Shown here: one piece after another, positions 13,672 to 54,890 of the stretch
Layout: each line of letters starts with the position of its first letter
Position numbering within the stretch: the first letter of the stretch is position 1
Origin: a virus
Taxonomy: Duplodnaviria > Heunggongvirae > Uroviricota > Caudoviricetes
DNA: 64,000 nucleotides
Virus record (IMG/VR): IMGVR_UViG_2657245091_000008
Direction: 5' to 3' (one strand)
Translations under genes and position numbers: made by a program
The notes under the pieces: generated by a model
What the model was told of the DNA's origin: nothing
Seen by the model: the letters and a program-made list of their open reading frames with translations, nothing else
Databases searched by the model: none

Positions 13672-13980
13672 ATTGGCAGCCTCCTTTTGCTAAGTTAAGG
13701 AGCTACCGCGTGAGGTTCCAATCTCAATGGCGGTAGCACTGACTGGGTTGGAACTACCGGCGCAAAAGGGAACCGGCCTGCCTTTCGGCAGCCCAGCCAG
13801 CACTACCATTGATCTCTGAGCTAAACGCTACGTATGGCTGTGCGATGGCATGACACAAAAAAAGACGCTTTCGGCGTCTGTGTCGCCTTTTGCATTATCC
13901 GGGGTTCCAATCCCGGCACCCGTTTTTCTAAGGTGCCGTAGAAATATACCCCACGATAATGCCAGGGCGCAACAGTCAGT
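13672..13980 (-). ncRNA. structured untranslated leader, candidate c4-like antisense RNA region (copy 1)
   Basis: No credible ORF; GGTTCCAATC occurs twice (13706-13715, 13903-13912) with a partial complement at 13736-13745; hairpin plus T run on the minus strand around 13856-13880. Confidence 0.3.
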
Positions 13981-14482
13981 ATTTTATGCTTTGGCGGATT
14001 TCTTCCGGGCTTGCTTGCAGGCGTAGGCCATTGCTTTAGCTTTCACTTCATCCAGCTTCCCGGTAATCACTTCTTTTCCGAGAGTGACAAACCAGTCATA
14101 GCAACCGCCAGTAATGTTCTTGATTTGAAAGTTGAGGTAGCGAACAGTCATTTTGACACCCCCAGCGCGAATAAAGAATGCAGATTATCGCGTGAGTGGT
14201 GGACGACGAGTGATGGGAAAAGACTGTAGTTGTTCATAGTGTAGTGACTCCTTGCTTTCGGAGCCGCCATCGACTGTTCCACGGTCTGGTGGCGGCGCAA
14301 TAAAGGCTGGAACACCGTGAGTCAACGGGGGCTTTTCAGCCACCTATATTGCACCGCCATAGGTATGGCGGCGGCAATAATACGAAAAACTAAATAGTTT
14401 GTCTCAAAAAGTTGACCGGTGTGCCAATCGGTAGTGAATGTACATCGGAGAAATTTTCAATTCAACTTAAAATGTTAGAAAA

Positions 14483-38592: not shown

Positions 38593-38985
38593 CTACCAGC
38601 GAGACAAACGAACAACATGTTTCACTTTTGCGATCCACTTTCCGCGATAACTATTGATTACGGCCTGTGCCAGCTTCAAATTGGCTTCAAAATCAGCCTT
38701 ACTACCATCAGACTCCACCAGCATTCCTCCATCTATTTCTGGTAAACATAGATAATCCTGCTCAACCTGCAGCGGCATTGATGGCTCTCTGAATGGCGTT
38801 ACTTGCTCTGCTTTCCAGCGAAATCTAACCCTCATCCCCCTGGTGGTCATTACTAGATAGCCTGTTATAGTGCTTTTATGGCCCACATCAGTACGCGTGG
38901 CATTGCATGACACGATCTTACAGTTAGCGATAGACCACTCCATATTGGTGGCCTGTTGAGTGCTTAATTTGGTAGTCCCGTACAT
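38593..38985 (-). CDS. hypothetical protein
   Basis: 130-aa ORF. Confidence 0.45.
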   Translation of the reverse strand: MYGTTKLSTQQATNMEWSIANCKIVSCNATRTDVGHKSTITGYLVMTTRGMRVRFRWKAEQVTPFREPSMPLQVEQDYLCLPEIDGGMLVESDGSKADFEANLKLAQAVINSYRGKWIAKVKHVVRLSRW

Positions 38986-39560
38986 CAGAAAGCCTCCCAG
39001 TCAGTCGCGATAATATCCACACCAGTTGCAAACCAGTCTGTCTGCGCCTGTAAATCCCCATTCATCATTACCAGGCGAGGCATCACCATCACATCGCACC
39101 CTTCCACAATATCGAATGCCTCTTCCGGCAAGAATTCGAAGAGCTTTTCTTTGCTGCCAATGCTGCCACGGAACATCGATATATAGCTCCCTTTAGGCCA
39201 TGATGTCCGCCGGGCATCAAGCCCTTTCATCATCCAGTAAAAAGCCGAGGAAAAAGGGATATTCTTTTTGCCAATGATTACATTATTCGCTTCTGTGTAC
39301 TTCAGGAACTTAACTAACCTTACCATTGACTCGGATAACGCAACGTATGGCTCATGATTGATTGCTGACACGCTTACACCGTGCAATCCAACGCTTACCA
39401 CTGTCATATCGCCGCTCTGTGCGGTTTCGATATTGACGCCTTTGCGAACTAATGAGGCGTAAAGTTCCTCTCGCTTTTGGGTCCAGCGTTCCCGCTTCCC
39501 TATGAAGTCACTCAAAATGAGATCTTCTTCTGCATATGCGTTATCGTTCGCCATTAACAT
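38985..39560 (-). CDS. hypothetical protein with DUF2829-like segment
   Basis: 191 aa; FSSAFYWMMKGLDARRTSWPKGSYI resembles the DUF2829 core. Confidence 0.4.
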   Translation of the reverse strand: MLMANDNAYAEEDLILSDFIGKRERWTQKREELYASLVRKGVNIETAQSGDMTVVSVGLHGVSVSAINHEPYVALSESMVRLVKFLKYTEANNVIIGKKNIPFSSAFYWMMKGLDARRTSWPKGSYISMFRGSIGSKEKLFEFLPEEAFDIVEGCDVMVMPRLVMMNGDLQAQTDWFATGVDIIATDWEAF

Positions 39561-40227: not shown

Positions 40228-40551
40228 TCACTTACAGCCACCTTGCATTTCCTCGGATAATTCATTGATTTTAGTGCTCAATAAGTAATCAAAGTAAAGA
40301 TAAAACACAAAAGTAACGATAGTGCTTAAAGTGTCTGAAATTGCGTATTTCAGCTCAGGAAGCATGACAAAGCAGACAAATAGCGGAAGAAATAACTGCA
40401 CTATGCACAGGCTCTCCTTCCACAACCATCTATATCTGAAGTCTGACAACAAAAACTCCATTGCTTGAAACTTTATTAGATTGCGGTGCCTGGTGCCTCC
40501 AGGTGACGTTAACCAGTTAACAATTAACGCCGGGATGTTTGACTTAACCAC
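40228..40551 (-). CDS. possible small membrane protein between tRNA genes
   Basis: 107-aa AT-rich ORF with hydrophobic stretches; no clear ribosome-binding site. Confidence 0.25.
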   Translation of the reverse strand: MVKSNIPALIVNWLTSPGGTRHRNLIKFQAMEFLLSDFRYRWLWKESLCIVQLFLPLFVCFVMLPELKYAISDTLSTIVTFVFYLYFDYLLSTKINELSEEMQGGCK

Positions 40552-40711
40552 TAAGGAGGATTGTTTTAACTGTTCCGCGTGCGCTTAGCCGCATTCACCG
40601 CAATGGTAAGAGCACTTGGCTGGCTGGGCGGCGATGACGCCTGTACGCATTTGGTGATCCGGTTCTGCTTCCGGCATTCGCTTAATTAGCCAAATACTCT
40701 TAACGTTGCGC

Positions 40712-40798: not shown

Positions 40799-41170
40799 CG
40801 TTATTGTGGCGACCGGTGCTGATCTCCGGCTTGCGGTTATTTCAGACTCTCACGGGCGTTTAATTGCCCCGCCGAACAGCTCTTTTCCGCAATAGCTGCA
40901 ATGTCTTTCGCGCATCAGCCTGCGCATTCACCACAATGTTGAGAACACTGGTTGTCACGCTGCAACGCAACATTTATTCGTAGATTGGGATATGACCCCG
41001 TTACGCCAGTGTTCTCAACGTTGTAGTGCCGGTTACGGTTCCGGCCAGGCCTCTTCCTCAACGGGGTGTTCTCCATACGGACTACCGTTTATTGGTCGTT
41101 CCTGCGGTTTATGTTGTGAAGCCAGATGCTTATCTTCTGGTTGCTTCAAAGAGCTGCACTTCCTCACAAC

Positions 41171-41244
41171 GGTAAGGGTACTTCGTAGGGATTCGAACCC
41201 TCTGCCAAGCTCGGCGATCTCCGACGTCGCAAAATACCCTTACC
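41171..41244 (-). other. tRNA-like fragment / degenerate tRNA
   Basis: Contains a T-arm-like GGGTTCGAATCCC and a 10-bp terminal inverted repeat (GGTAAGGGTA...TACCCTTACC) but no foldable anticodon or D arm. Confidence 0.3.
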
Positions 41245-41252
41245 TGTTGTGC

Positions 41253-41424: not shown

Positions 41425-41501
41425 TGGCGATGGTGGGTGGATTCGAACCACCGACCGACAGCTTAGAAGGCTGCTGCTCTATCCTACTGAGCTACACCAT
41501 C
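41425..41501 (-). tRNA. tRNA-Arg (anticodon UCU, rare AGA/AGG decoder)
   Basis: GATGGTGTAGCTCAGTAGGATAGAGCAGCAGCCTTCTAAGCTGTCGGTCGGTGGTTCGAATCCACCCACCATCGCCA. Confidence 0.8.
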
Positions 41502-42735
41502 ACTTGCCGGGTACGTCTCCGGCGAGGGCTTCCACCTCCGTATGCTTTTCGGCGCACCGCGCCCTGGCTGCAATTCGGTAACAGGGGATGCATAACCCTG
41601 GCTTCCAGCGTGATTAGCGCCTTCAGCATGACGGGATATACCCGTTACAAGAAATTCCCCCAGGATGCCATTAAGCAATGGCTGTTACGCGGGAGGGACG
41701 TAACAGGTAAGGGCGCTGACCAGAAAGACCTGACCCTTCTCATTCATCTGGTTAATCACACCAGCGCCCTTGCCTGTTATGCCTCCCCGTTCCCTAATAC
41801 ACAGACGGGGACACTCTGCGGTCGATTTTTTGACGGGGGACGACTCATACCCCGTGGCGTCTGGCTTCTTAGGCCGCTACCATCATCAGATCATCGTTTG
41901 CATTTACTTTAATGGTCGGTTTCTAAACCGCCGCAAAGTCGCTAACCATGACGAAAACCCTAAAAAAGCCCACCCGAAGATGGGCAAATACGCTACATCT
42001 CACACAAGAAAGAAGCCGACTGCCTGAGCTGGATTCACTTTCAAATGCCCGCAGAAAGGGATCACAAGTCGGCTTCTTTCTTGATGCGGCACTCTCTCCG
42101 CCCGTCACCGCTCTGTCTCGGTTGTCGCGTTTGCCACGCCAGCCGTAACGAGGTTTAAAGTCTTTGCACGTTTCCATCACTCGACTGCCGTCTGTGGCTG
42201 TTCGTTGCAGCGGGGGTGCCTCCCCCTGGGGATATCCCCGGCCTTACCCCATTCTTTCAAGACACAATGCAAGGCCACATCCGCATAGGTGCATTACCGC
42301 AACATTAAGGAGACTCAGGGCAAAAGGTAACCGCCACAAAAATCCCTATGCCTCCTTAATGTTGAAGATGTGCATTGATGATTAGATGCAGCATGTACTG
42401 TTACTCTCTGCCGGACCATCATCAATGAACACCTTAAAAAGACCTTCCGTGGCTCAACATGTATTGTCGTTTACTCCGCAAAGTGCTCTCTCTGAAACCA
42501 CTTTCCGCACTAAACCTGTTGAACTTTGGTCAGCTCGGTGCCAAAGCGTGCTTTTGCTTTACTATACTTTTCTAACACTTTAATTTGTTAACAGCCGGTG
42601 GGCAAACAATAACCAATAAGTGACTATCAAGCCCAGCAAGCGAAACGTGGGTGCCGCCCACCAGCAAGGAAAATTCTATGTTAAGTTATCATCACAATCA
42701 ATACATTCGAATTGTGATTTTAGATTTCTAACACA

Positions 42736-43959
42736 TTACTTCCCGTAAAGATCTTCTACGCCCCCATTCTTCTTATCCCATTCGTTCGCCCATACCCGGC
42801 AAGCGTCAATGATTTCCTGACGACGATCTCCTTGCATGAACGGGATGCTTTCATGGAAACAGCTTGGAATGCAGGCCACACTGAATACGGTATCAAACTC
42901 CGTCTGCTTGATTGCCTCCAGCGTCTCTGGACGCATTTTTAATTCATCGATTGGCGCATCCTTAGAGTCCATAATCCGGCGATATAAGCGCGGAAAATCC
43001 GTCTCCAGGTACGCCATAATTTTATCTGCGAGACATTCGTCTATGTCGGTATTCCAGTCCTTTTCGAAGCCCGGCAGGCGATAGTAAAGCGGCGTTCCCC
43101 ATACCGATGGGATCACATCCATCGTTAACAGGCGATTGGTTCTGATTTGTTGATGGTAATTAGCCGTCAGCAGTGCTTCGCCACGCTGCCCAGTTTCCGC
43201 AACCAGGCCGTGCGGATACTCATGGATGTAGGCAATGGCATCCCTTCCATCATACATAAGTGGAAATGTCTCTGGTCTTTGTCCCATGCCACAAGCACGG
43301 TTCAGATCGTGACCAAGCTGTGAGCACTCTCGCTTTAATGTTTCGATAATGCTCTGCGCTGTAGCCAACTTTTTACGCAGTGTGACGCCTTCGCCTTGAT
43401 AATCAATGCATTGCTGATTGAGCTTGGTTAAACGCTCTTTTAGTTCCCGGCGCTCTCTTTTCAGCGTGCGGTTATCCTTCTCCGCAACATCCAGCCGCTT
43501 TGTCAGGCTGGGCGGATAGTCTTTTTTGTAACGGTTCAAATCGGCTTCGGCAGATTTACGCAGTGTATTTGCCTGTTCAAGACGCGCTTCCAGATTGCCG
43601 ATCTCATTACGCATATTCGCGGCAAATTGATTAACTGCATCACCCAGGCTTTCAACTGTCGCTGATACGCCTGTGACTTGTGAAAAACGGATCAAGCCAT
43701 CATTAACGGCTTGTTGGTATTCCTCAAACTGATCCACCAGCTTATTGTAATCAACTGCCCCATCATCAAGCAGCTTGTTGATTTCCGCCACCAGGTTATC
43801 TGTAGTGGCAATGACACTCTCGTGCAGTCGCTTTGACAGGTCATCACCCGGATTCCGTTTCTGTATAAGAGCGATTTGTGTGCGCAGCGTTTCAATTGCT
43901 GTCGAGATAATTTCCAGATTAGAAGTATCAGTGTGTTGACTCATTGCTGTTCCCGTCAC
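42736..43959 (-). CDS. hypothetical coiled-coil protein
   Basis: 407-aa ORF; operator-like sites both upstream (43962-43988) and at its 3' end (42719-42738). Confidence 0.5.
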   Translation of the reverse strand: MTGTAMSQHTDTSNLEIISTAIETLRTQIALIQKRNPGDDLSKRLHESVIATTDNLVAEINKLLDDGAVDYNKLVDQFEEYQQAVNDGLIRFSQVTGVSATVESLGDAVNQFAANMRNEIGNLEARLEQANTLRKSAEADLNRYKKDYPPSLTKRLDVAEKDNRTLKRERRELKERLTKLNQQCIDYQGEGVTLRKKLATAQSIIETLKRECSQLGHDLNRACGMGQRPETFPLMYDGRDAIAYIHEYPHGLVAETGQRGEALLTANYHQQIRTNRLLTMDVIPSVWGTPLYYRLPGFEKDWNTDIDECLADKIMAYLETDFPRLYRRIMDSKDAPIDELKMRPETLEAIKQTEFDTVFSVACIPSCFHESIPFMQGDRRQEIIDACRVWANEWDKKNGGVEDLYGK

Positions 43960-54568: not shown

Positions 54569-54890
54569 AGTTACGGCCTCACTAACAGGTTTAACAACCT
54601 GCCACCCGCTGTCAAACAGGTGGCAGGACGTGACAGGGTTGACAGACTGGCGTTAGTGAAACCAGCAGGCCGAAGCCTCCCCATCACGCCCCACCATAAT
54701 TCGGGCGTAACGCGGTTTACGGACACAAAAATACCGCAATATCGGAAATCTGCGGTTGTCCGCACTAACATTCAGGCTGTCAAACCCGGTCGCAGAATTT
54801 GCTACGACGGCATGAATATAAGCCTGAAAACATGGAAGATCAACTAAAAATTTCAGCAATGGATGACTTCAGTCGATGATGCAGATCATA
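54569..54890 (-). ncRNA. structured untranslated leader, candidate c4-like antisense RNA region (copy 2)
   Basis: CTGTCAAAC occurs twice (54609-54617, 54777-54785) with its complement GTTGACAG at 54638-54645; 9-bp stem hairpin CCTGCCACC...GGTGGCAGG. Confidence 0.3.

Follow-up and report, generated by a model that had tools for sequence, protein, structure and literature searches.

What does a phage-plasmid carry in 1.2 kb to which no gene has been assigned? The window, by which we mean the whole 64,000-nucleotide stretch of viral DNA analysed here, belongs to a D6-like phage-plasmid of the P1 family (nearest records phage D6, 97%, and P1, 89% over 41425–41988). An initial annotation had singled out positions 41502–42735 as a region between a tRNA-Arg gene and a 407-aa gene that holds long inverted repeats, an AT palindrome and two operator-like sites, and had proposed that it encodes one or more non-coding RNAs or serves as a replication or partition cis-site. 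The explanation that we regard as best, and as probable when taken as a whole, is that of an operon leader with a tmRNA-like module that acts on the trans-translation machinery.

Genomic context of the gene-free interval

The proposed limits of the interval are borne out by the coordinates of its neighbours, tRNA-Arg(UCU) (41425–41501, minus strand) and a pmgS-like gene of 407 aa (42736–43959, minus strand). This tRNA, the first of its operon, determines on which strand the leader is read and where the leader ends on its 3' side; all five tRNAs of the window lie on the minus strand, and in the P1 annotation Pban, the operator Op72 and trnA follow one another in an identical order, with the strand also matching. 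Further along, an ORF at 38985–39560 is identical to a RefSeq protein named Tad2 anti-Thoeris, an STnc100-like element recognized by Rfam is present in the same operon, and what the D6 annotation lists downstream is lpa, tci genes and hypothetical genes rather than ban. The interval is the minus-strand non-coding leader of a tRNA and anti-defence operon and the counterpart of the P1 ban-operon leader, which it resembles in position, strand and gene order, in the 89% identity of 41425–41988 and in an operator that overlaps the end of the upstream gene. It differs from the P1 leader in that the P1 'dicF-like' hairpins are missing in the window, where the upstream 750 nt of the leader are instead specific to the D6 lineage (the downstream 490 nt being common to P1), and in that the first tRNA is Arg(UCU) in the window and Asn(GUU) in P1. 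The Rfam DicF model matched neither the window nor the P1 'dicF-like region' locus at E ≤ 1.

RefSeq annotates zero genes in the gap in three relatives at 82–100% identity, and we found no conserved gene in 41502–42735. The long stop-free stretches of the interval are not kept in P1 or in the relative L007, and a plus-strand ORF of 180 aa and a minus-strand ORF of 85 aa were rejected as genes, being unconserved in P1, L007 or Pantoea. A TnpB gene lies beside the homologous segment in the relative L006; it was rejected as part of the element and represents an IS insertion.

That the interval has no frame with a ribosome-binding site, as had been claimed, agrees with the empty RefSeq gap but not with one entry of the ORF list, a candidate 31-codon frame with a TTG start (MWRLPFALSLLNVAVMHLCGCGLALCLERMG; 42244–42339, minus strand) that begins 12 nt downstream of AAGGAGG. 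Read from 42339 to 42244 as a hydrophobic product whose Shine–Dalgarno (SD) sequence is locked in a hairpin, this frame might encode a small membrane peptide or a type I toxin, which we judge quite unlikely. AAGGAGG upstream and a TTG start in a hairpin loop would suit such a gene, the frame is kept in L004 with another hydrophobic N-terminus and an optimal 7-nt SD spacing, and L005 and L007 show two synonymous changes and one conservative change. However, the 3' two-thirds of the frame are nucleotide-invariant in ten relatives, silent sites included, which points to constraint on RNA or DNA rather than on protein; moreover, the 12-nt spacing and the TTG start are weak, the product matched no protein family, RefSeq calls no such gene in the three relatives and a search for an antisense promoter found none.

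Putative control elements and RNA structures of the leader

The two operator-like sites proved real: they form a 17-nt direct repeat, TTTCTAACAC.TTA.TT, at 42725–42741 (O1; AAGTAATGTGTTAGAAA in the minus reading) and 42569–42585 (O2; AATTAAAGTGTTAGAAA), 156 bp apart and in the same orientation, and the window holds 12 copies of their core, [AG]TGTTAGAAA, where 0.4 would be expected. O1 overlaps the stop codon of the pmgS-like gene, much as the P1 operator Op72 sits at the end of dmt, and its core is unchanged in five relatives with diverged flanks. In L007, O2 lies inside the spacer of a near-consensus TTAACA-17-TATAAT; the window has a 19-nt spacing to TATAGT. Between O1 and O2, a consensus scan returned a sigma-70-like promoter, TTGATT-17-TAGAAT (42673–42701, minus strand), a match that by the scan alone is at chance level and non-significant; both hexamers and their spacing, like the operator cores, are kept in relatives down to ~73% identity. 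The AT palindrome TCACAAT...ATTGTGA is present at about 42694–42719 as described, with only its right arm conserved in relatives, because that arm overlaps the −35 hexamer. The P1 C1 operator consensus ATTGCTCTAATAAATTT gave 0 matches at ≤3 mismatches, and a different over-represented motif, which probably belongs to a D6-type repressor, stands in the equivalent place. The two sites are best read as putative phage-repressor operators controlling the leader promoter.

The inverted repeats were found where they had been reported, most of them longer than noted (17 rather than 15 bp and 13 rather than 10 bp), and form part of a series of structures on the minus strand. A 5' leader stem (GCUGGUGGGC ... 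GCCCACCGGC, inverted repeat I16, ~50 nt enclosed; 42594–42665) has both arms unchanged, rather than covarying, in five relatives and probably pairs. Two extra long repeats were detected (42362–42382/42418–42438 and 41692–41718/41762–41788), and a long hairpin at 42367–42433, formed by the arms of repeat I3, has largely conserved arms and a variable loop. The CATTAAGGAG repeat is perfect over 13 bp (42300–42312/42352–42364) and 86% complementary over 21 nt; its hairpin (CAACAUUAAGGAG / CUCCUUAAUGUUG; 42300–42364), identified by inverted repeat and fold, buries AAGGAGG and in L004 shows a compensatory change from A-U to G-C together with a replaced loop. Next to it, a near-invariant block (42210–42300) that includes the GC hairpins GGGGAUAUCCCC and GGGGGAGGCACCCCC has 93–100% invariant columns in ten relatives, versus 20–70% in flanking 30-nt bins. 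The adjoining segment at 42093–42202 is shared with a Pantoea plasmid (81% identity over 113 nt to an intergenic region) and missing from L007; the 85-aa ORF that overlaps it is not kept in Pantoea. The 17-bp perfect repeat (42005–42021/42067–42083, 45 nt between arms), of a kind for which our own estimate is ~4e-5 expected by chance per 1.2 kb, forms a hairpin (42005–42083) with an inner hairpin in its loop; the outer stem is retained in L004 through two double, compensatory changes, and the inner stem is CUUUC/GAAAG here and CUUCU/AGAAG in L007. A 251-nt leader segment has a folding z of −4.2.

An intrinsic terminator (GCCCAUCUUCGGGUGGGC then U6, with a 7-bp stem and a UUCG loop; 41962–41985) is kept in P1 and all relatives, and Erwinia and Rosenbergiella carry unrelated terminator hairpins at the equivalent spot, ahead of the tmRNA-like module described below. 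Lying just upstream of that module, the terminator could block its transcription. The succession of the 17-bp hairpin and the terminator resembles a typical processed, terminator-ended sRNA, and the genomic niches, the lambdoid late leader on the one hand and the surroundings of TerB and tRNAs on the other, are those of the prophage sRNAs STnc100/PasD, PasA/C, AgvB and Esr41 from the Q-to-lysis-gene region and tRNA islands (bioRxiv 10.64898/2026.05.13.724894); that paper makes no mention of a tmRNA-like element, the word tmRNA occurring 0 times.

Towards the tRNA, a long hairpin (repeat I1; 41692–41788) of a recurring 'CA(C/U)AACAGG(U/C)AAGGG...' cassette type shows compensatory pairs in the consensus fold, and related arrays have stems of this kind beside different inserts. 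It is followed by a conserved branched 3' domain (41502–41691) that ends directly at the 5' end of the tRNA, is ~89% identical to P1 and in the consensus fold shows both compensatory and one-sided changes. RNAduplex paired 41927–41959, the 5' end of the module, with 41600–41634 (~29 pairs, −34 kcal/mol), and the pairing survives the changes seen in L075; in other lineages, however, background duplexes attain −24 to −32 kcal/mol and the complement of the invariant GUUAGCGAC is absent; a long-range helix joining the two segments is possible.

These comparisons support the view that the interval is probably a leader that is transcribed and consists of several structured RNA modules, one of them tmRNA-derived, with stems that covary in relatives, and the proposal of non-coding RNAs is to that extent upheld. 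Relatives show no conserved gene that would replace the repeats, several stems of which are kept by compensatory changes. The other proposal, that the inverted repeats belong to a replication origin or a partition/incompatibility site, we consider scarcely credible: a stretch that lacks genes but contains an AT-rich palindrome and long inverted repeats is consistent with it, but the interval has no iterons beyond chance two-copy matches, 0 DnaA boxes, 0 IHF sites, GATC at half the window density and a GC content of 50% against 47.5% in the window, the palindrome is unconserved, and the P1 equivalent is annotated as promoter and leader, not as an origin. The repeat arms moreover change compensatorily, as RNA stems would, which points to pairing in RNA.

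The tmRNA-like module

Directly after the terminator, at the start of the 490 nt shared with P1, lies a module of 195 nt (41772–41966, minus strand) that comprises a 5' motif (GGGUUUUCGUCAUGGUUAGCGAC), a resume context UAAAU-GCA, a tag, a helix-5-like hairpin and two pseudoknots. A covariance model trained only on non-P1 lineages recovered it at full length as the sole match in the window (104 bits, E 1.4e-22), and full-length members turned up in 55 of the 100 sequences searched. A search against Rfam, as suggested in the initial annotation, returned a match to tmRNA_permuted at 24.1 bits in the window, below the gathering score of 47 (RF04321); the best match, in a Klebsiella homologue, reached 39.6 bits (E 5e-6), and Rfam tmRNA models match the homologous spot in every lineage. 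The tag frame, GCA AAC GAU GAU CUG AUG AUG GUA GCG GCC UAA (41869–41901, minus strand), reads ANDDLMMVAA* and together with the resume context spans 41869–41906. Its stop codon lies in the loop of the hairpin GGC-CUAAGAA-GCC (41863–41875), the pairs of which covary in the family although only 71–73% are paired in the alignments. Two H-type pseudoknots stand 3' of the tag, A at 41821–41855 (S1 ACGGGG/CCCCGU; S2 GUCG/CGAC) and B at 41784–41820 (S1 CGCAGA/UCUGUG; S2 UCCCCGU/ACGGGGA).

The four pseudoknot stems are 98.5–100% paired, with double changes in 11 of 20 pairs, compared with 28–44% pairing in slid controls; with the P1 type added, 92% pairing remains and compensation is seen in 15 of 22 pairs. 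Because the members of the family are related to one another, covariation statistics based on shuffling are inflated. An equivalent of the upstream PK1 was not established, a bulged hairpin being all that was found, and a global alignment with E. coli ssrA was not significant.

The tag has ten codons in every enterobacterial family member, and its frame is intact in all full-length members. Tags were initially collected with their own first 11 nt as the anchor. A search that used pseudoknot B as its sole anchor yielded five species, all of them with the 10-codon tag intact. U occurs at position 2 of 37 of the 48 variable tag codons, at position 1 of 9 and at position 3 of 6, and as many as four synonymous nucleotide variants specify one and the same tag peptide. 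As far as such patterns of substitution can show it, selection has acted on the tag variants at the codon level. Since the last Ala codons also pair in the stop-codon hairpin, part of the codon conservation could be structural. The C-termini VAA, MAA, AAA and AVA fit reported ClpXP degron rules (10.1101/2024.01.29.576913).

The module shares with tmRNA (SsrA; RF00023, RF01850, RF04321) the UAAAU-GCA resume context, a stop codon in a hairpin loop, a tag that starts with ANDD and ends in a hydrophobic residue followed by Ala-Ala, and H-type pseudoknots directly after the tag. Its 5' motif GGGUUUUCGUCAUGGUUAGCGAC also resembles GGGGCUGAUUCUGGAUUCGAC of E. coli tmRNA. Genuine permuted tmRNA genes on viral contigs have a 16-mer in common with the module, and the family model matches them over the tag region only. 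Unlike tmRNA, the module has no acceptor stem, T-arm or CCA, and thus cannot be charged with alanine, and it sits in a phage operon leader beside ordinary tRNAs rather than as a stand-alone gene. ARAGORN at default settings found no tRNA-like domain with a 7-bp acceptor stem with G3:U70, a T-arm with a 7-nt T-loop and a 3' CCA, a manual search of the flanks gave nothing convincing, and Rfam matched no other tmRNA piece in the whole window. ARAGORN pseudo-calls at the 80% threshold were rejected as a tRNA-like domain, since they are weak and reuse the GC hairpins 42212–42239 or 41576–41610, and the terminator hairpin was rejected as a T-arm because its loop and the following strand do not fit. 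Having no tRNA-like domain, the locus is not a tmRNA gene; judged by its sequence and covariation, the module is a homologue of the mRNA-like and pseudoknot part of tmRNA without the tRNA-like domain. We found no published description of it, and the P1vir RNA-seq paper does not mention the region.

Phage-borne partial tmRNAs have precedents that may act on trans-translation as half-molecules. The tmRNA of mycobacteriophage DS6A consists of the tRNA-like domain only and reportedly inhibits the tmRNA of the host, perhaps through titration of SmpB (PMC4131195, PMC11915505). In being phage-borne and partial, the module resembles DS6A and other tmRNAs without a coding sequence, but it is the mirror image of DS6A, which has the tRNA-like half and no tag, whereas the module has the tag and pseudoknots and no tRNA-like half.

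Prophages of the P1-, SSU5- and lambda-like kinds carry related copies, the SSU5-like ones being Klebsiella phage-plasmids; in lambdoid prophages the module lies between Q and holin, after tR', and both module and terminator are also found in P1 itself. The module is present in 660 of 5426 complete E. coli genomes (~12%). In a variant lineage (L006, L046), an internal deletion takes parts of both pseudoknots.

Possible action on trans-translation

In the prophage state, the phage repressor would keep the leader promoter off; after induction, the leader would be transcribed, with the terminator attenuating or punctuating transcription, and cleavage by tRNA-processing enzymes at the adjoining tRNA and by RNases at the flanking long hairpins could free the module as a stable RNA. 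Because the tag frame shows codon-level selection, we infer, and commit ourselves to the view, that the module acts on the trans-translation machinery. How it would do so is a matter of more tentative choice. By the known mechanism, a tag template has no access to the ribosome unless it is tethered to a charged tRNA-like domain. We lean, with reservations, towards a template read by rescued ribosomes, the tRNA-like half being supplied in trans by some partner; a mimic or decoy of the mRNA-like part of tmRNA is a possibility to which we give less weight, and we hold it just as doubtful that the module does something else. It is rather unlikely, in our estimate, that P1-, SSU5- and lambda-like phages carry an orphan tag-template RNA that is decoded with either a separate tRNA-like RNA or host tmRNA–SmpB, in which event ribosome rescue would be redirected after induction, stalled chains would receive a phage-specified degradation tag, and the anti-defence operon would house a split, virus-run trans-translation system.

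A rival explanation holds that the phage encodes a split tmRNA, in which a separately encoded tRNA-like RNA pairs with or delivers the module, so that the phage runs trans-translation with its own degradation tag. Candidate partners are a cloverleaf at 40803–40934 in the window and, in SSU5-like Klebsiella elements, a gene consisting of a tRNA-like domain only, with G3:U70 and CCA. Codon-level selection on the tag speaks for such a system, a cloverleaf with covarying stems accompanies the module in the same arrays in most lineages, and in Klebsiella (L009) a canonical T-arm, GCGGGUUCGAUUCCCGC, lies ~75 nt after the module, with G3:U70 plus CCA in one register; two-piece tmRNAs, too, occur naturally (PMC11915505). 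Yet the cloverleaf carries the pair U3-A70 or G3-C70, its T-loop is of a non-canonical 9 nt, a conserved CCA is missing from it, Rfam tmRNA and tRNA models do not match it, module and partner show no conserved complementarity, and the L009 duplex energies are no better than those of shuffles, all of which leaves us inclined against a split tmRNA.

An alternative interpretation is that the module is a decaying pseudogene, a tmRNA fragment taken up by an ancestral phage and now without function. The missing tRNA-like domain, the score under the Rfam gathering threshold, the lineage L006/L046 with its internal deletion of parts of both pseudoknots (and, in L006, the TnpB insertion) and an exhaustive tmRNA survey of RefSeq viruses, which lists none for P1 and discarded pseudogenes missing one gene end (PMC4131195), are consistent with decay. 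We nevertheless consider this very improbable, because compensatory changes keep all four pseudoknot stems even though the lineages compared differ at most stem positions, no full-length member has lost the tag frame, which varies synonymously, and elements of the P1, SSU5 and lambda types, like 12% of complete E. coli genomes, have retained the module.

Action on trans-translation would have consequences that depend on which form it takes. If the tag is read, one would have to revisit the current rule that the template must be tethered, covalently or by base pairs, to the alanyl tRNA-like domain. A decoy, on the other hand, would make the module the first known case of a virus mimicking the mRNA-like half of tmRNA, a counterpart to the known inhibitors that consist of the tRNA-like domain only, and trans-translation would join the targets of phage anti-defence islands. 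A conserved and structured half-tmRNA has apparently been missed in the well-annotated P1 and in the well-catalogued tmRNA family, and it fills an annotation blank in ~12% of complete E. coli genomes. The lambdoid late leader that houses the module is the region that also carries Shiga-toxin genes and tRNAs.

Leader of the tRNA operon and its control region

The interval 41502-42735, between tRNA-Arg and the pmgS-like gene, has an ordinary part and an unusual one. The former resembles P1: a heavily structured, probably repressor-controlled leader of an operon, with a terminator. The latter is a conserved, covarying tag-plus-pseudoknot half of tmRNA without the tRNA half. The window's five tRNA genes, which begin with Arg-UCU (41425-41501) and continue with Tyr, Thr, Ser and a CAU tRNA, are all encoded on the minus strand, and the P1 equivalent has identical order and strand (Pban with the bivalent C1 operator Op72, the 'dicF-like region', then trnA; P1 annotation); the interval is thus the leader of the tRNA operon, read from 42735 to 41502. 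Escherichia phage D6 matched the interval and its flanks at 97%, covering 98% of a 1.4-kb query, and P1, P7 and ~20 other P1-like phages matched at ~89%, restricted to 41425-41988. The part common with P1 is present in 619 plasmid records; 41989-42735 occurs only in ~120 D6-like plasmids (Escherichia, Salmonella, Shigella) and in 99 of 5,426 complete E. coli genomes, on plasmids in every case. Further downstream, ORF 38985-39560 is identical to a protein named Thoeris anti-defence Tad2 in RefSeq. The first tRNA is Arg(UCU) in the window versus Asn(GUU) in P1 (L001 3501-3576) and the relative L004, with window and P1 having identical acceptor and D stems and different anticodon arms; tRNA-Tyr is missing from D6 and the relative L003.

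From its sequence, 42569-42741 is read as a repressor-controlled promoter that would be flanked by two putative operators 156 bp apart. The P1 operator consensus is absent, and a 17-nt direct repeat is present in two copies (42569-42585 and 42725-42741). Both operator-like cores, [AG]TGTTAGAAA, were invariant in an alignment of D6 and three more distant relatives, as were the hexamers TTGATT (42696-42701) and TAGAAT (42673-42678) between them; the AT palindrome reported in the initial annotation has a left arm that is not conserved in this alignment. The core occurs 12 times in the window compared with 0.4 times in shuffles, and several copies are intergenic, for example directly upstream of the pmgS-like gene and near a C4 antisense-RNA locus. 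The ten further copies, mostly intergenic (10-mer starts 2960, 14472, 15131, 19628, 32719, 34129, 43974, 45017, 54919 and 56117), probably constitute the repressor regulon of the D6-type element. C4 antisense RNA/isrK (immI-type) itself scored above the Rfam gathering score at two separate minus-strand loci (13726-13936 and 54616-54821), with a third, weaker C4 match at 14285-14364.

Structured RNA in the interval

The inverted repeats described initially are real and longer than first stated: a perfect repeat of 17 bp (42005-42021/42067-42083), one with 13 bp perfect and 21 nt at 86% (42300-42320/42344-42364), and further long repeats at 42362-42382/42418-42438 and 41692-41718/41762-41788. 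In the leader portion confined to this lineage (42005-42665), two long hairpins are predicted for minus-strand RNA 42195-42445, whose fold is far more stable than those of shuffled sequences (z = -4.2). Hairpin 42300-42364 buries AAGGAGG; in L004 the loop is replaced, and a double change from A-U to G-C leaves the pairing intact; a candidate 31-codon hydrophobic frame with a TTG start inside the hairpin loop (42339->42244) is kept in L004 with a different N-terminus. Ten relatives are 93-100% invariant across 42210-42300 and 20-70% invariant in the flanks, and because the invariance extends to silent sites, it argues for constraint on the nucleic acid itself. Two GC hairpins and the 3' portion of the 31-codon ORF fall within this 90-nt block. 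The 17-bp hairpin retains its stem in L004 via two double changes, its inner hairpin covaries in the relative L007, and 20 nt downstream lies an intrinsic terminator (41985->41962; UUCG loop, U6) that is kept in P1 and all relatives. A 110-nt piece, 42093-42202, is common to a Pantoea plasmid intergenic region and missing from L007, and the ORF overlapping it is not conserved. The P1 'dicF-like region' (L001 4032-4180), which had no match to Rfam DicF, forms two hairpins, with stem covariation among P1, L004 and L007, and has a conserved 21-nt loop, AGGUUGACCAU(G/A)CGCCUAAGU; in L004 and L007 its counterpart is inserted after the 17-bp hairpin and before the terminator, and the window lacks it.

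The initial annotation proposed either non-coding RNA or a replication or partition cis-site. The cis-site interpretation is very probably wrong, since the interval contains no DnaA or IHF sites, few GATC sites and direct repeats at chance level only. The gap carries no RefSeq gene or RNA annotation in three relatives (82-100% identity), and neither P1 nor L007 preserves the long stop-free stretches, among them a 180-aa plus-strand frame that overlaps the tRNAs. Non-coding RNA proved to be the right reading, in the form of the structured leader and a conserved, covarying tmRNA-like RNA.

A tmRNA-like module

The Rfam covariance search suggested at the outset matched tmRNA_permuted at the homologous place in every locus examined. 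The score was 24 bits in P1, L004, L007 and the window itself and rose to 39.6 bits (E 5e-6) in a Klebsiella phage-plasmid of the SSU5-like type, to which the beta_tmRNA model aligns too; the region aligned by these models is the tag. Scanning viral contigs with the 16-mer TAAATGCAAACGATGA revealed two kinds of locus: genuine permuted tmRNA genes, recognised by ARAGORN, and a separate family not called by ARAGORN, with tags ANDDLMMVAA, ANDDLMLMAA, ANDDVVLMAA, ANDEQFLAVA and others. Family-wide features are a 5' motif (GUUUUCGUC..GUUAGCGACUUUGCGG), a resume context, a 10-codon tag, a stop-codon hairpin and two H-type pseudoknots. Across 24 non-P1 members the four pseudoknot stems were 98.5-100% paired, with both-sided changes in 11 of 20 pairs, compared with only 28-44% pairing when partners were slid by 1-3 columns. 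A covariance model built from these 24 sequences alone gave a single, full-length match in the window (41772-41966, 104 bits, E 1.4e-22), recovered full-length members in 55 of 100 sequences (the window and 99 fetched loci), and matched genuine permuted tmRNAs in the tag region only. With the P1 type added to the alignment, pairing was 92% and 15 of 22 pairs were compensated. On the E. coli plasmid L006 (NZ_CP075461; 2336-3664), an IS encoding TnpB has entered 16 nt upstream of the TAAAT of the resume context, at the equivalent of window position 41922/41923, and the L006 lineage and L046 carry a deletion taking out parts of both pseudoknots.

The window tag, UAAAU GCA AAC GAU GAU CUG AUG AUG GUA GCG GCC UAA, encodes ANDDLMMVAA, as against ANDENYALAA in E. 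coli tmRNA, and has neither a Shine-Dalgarno sequence nor a start codon for ordinary initiation. A genome scan anchored solely on pseudoknot B (41784-41820) recovered members in five Enterobacterales species (Rosenbergiella twice, Pseudocitrobacter, Rouxiella, Erwinia); every one has an intact 10-codon tag, and ANDDYKLAAA and ANDDLMLQAA are new variants. A single tag peptide can be encoded by as many as four synonymous nucleotide sequences, and the tag C-termini agree with ClpXP degron preferences (10.1101/2024.01.29.576913). At the four variable tag codons of 12 peptide variants, U occupies position 2 in 37 of 48 cases, position 1 in 9 of 48 and position 3 in 6 of 48; selection on a decoded tag would give such a pattern, with the caveat that the sequences are related and the last codons are also part of the stop-codon hairpin. 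Judged from these features, the module very probably acts on the trans-translation machinery, as tmRNA does, where it would serve either as a template to be decoded or as a mimic. It does not qualify as a tmRNA gene by the defining feature: tag and pseudoknots are common to both, whereas the tRNA-like half belongs only to tmRNA.

Candidate partners and distribution

No tRNA-like domain was found in the module, its flanks or the rest of the window. A ~29-pair helix of the module 5' end with 41600-41634, compatible with the substitutions in the relative L075, would provide the ring closure that helix P2 gives tmRNA, but it does not stand out clearly from background, and other lineages lack a counterpart. 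One candidate partner is a cloverleaf RNA with covarying stems and non-canonical loops (40803-40934, minus strand, directly before tRNA-Ser; paralogue 40482-40602), which accompanies the module in most arrays. The other is a 154-nt gene with a tRNA-like domain only, on the Klebsiella plasmid CP067502 (L009, minus strand, ~2183-2337), ~75 nt downstream of an orphan tag module and uncalled by ARAGORN, with a canonical T-arm (GCGGGUUCGAUUCCCGC) and, in one register, G3:U70 and an encoded CCA. Neither candidate has special complementarity to the module. The cloverleaf comprises an acceptor-like stem (UGUGGUG/CGCCACA), a D-like arm, a variable centre and a hairpin, GCCGG-AGAUCAGCA-CCGGU; its paralogue has a sub-threshold Rfam STnc100 match (39 bits), and the same cloverleaf element, its stems covarying, also lies 3' of the module in lambdoid prophages and other phage-plasmids.

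The module occurs in 660 of 5,426 complete E. coli genomes (582 locations on plasmids and 140 on chromosomes), and in almost all matches listed nothing is annotated beneath it. We found no description of such an element in full-text literature searches. In an exhaustive survey of tmRNA that also covered RefSeq viruses, viral ssrA was reported solely from mycobacteriophages, phage G and DS6A, of which DS6A has just the tRNA-like domain (PMC4131195); a 2025 database paper lists CDS-less forms and none without the tRNA-like domain (PMC11915505); and tmRNA goes unmentioned in a 2026 preprint on the sRNAs that prophages encode in these neighbourhoods (10.64898/2026.05.13.724894).

Chromosomal copies lie in lambdoid prophages between the Q antiterminator and holin, right after a tR'-type terminator, bordered by the same long-stem cassettes and the cloverleaf. 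In the window, one such cassette (41165-41250, minus strand) has a long stem, CACAACAGGUAAGGG...CCCUUACCGUUGUG, around a hairpin with a canonical T-loop (GAGGGUUCGAAUCCCUAC). This stem type flanks different inserts in related arrays, which points to a modular RNA operon whose processing stems are shared. The ~1-kb Q-holin gap of two E. coli chromosomes (L135 and L136, 2142-3240), annotated with only one doubtful hypothetical protein, holds after the tR'-type terminator an array of cassette, tag module, cassette and then cloverleaf, the last being clear in L135; L136 has other modules and no clear cloverleaf.
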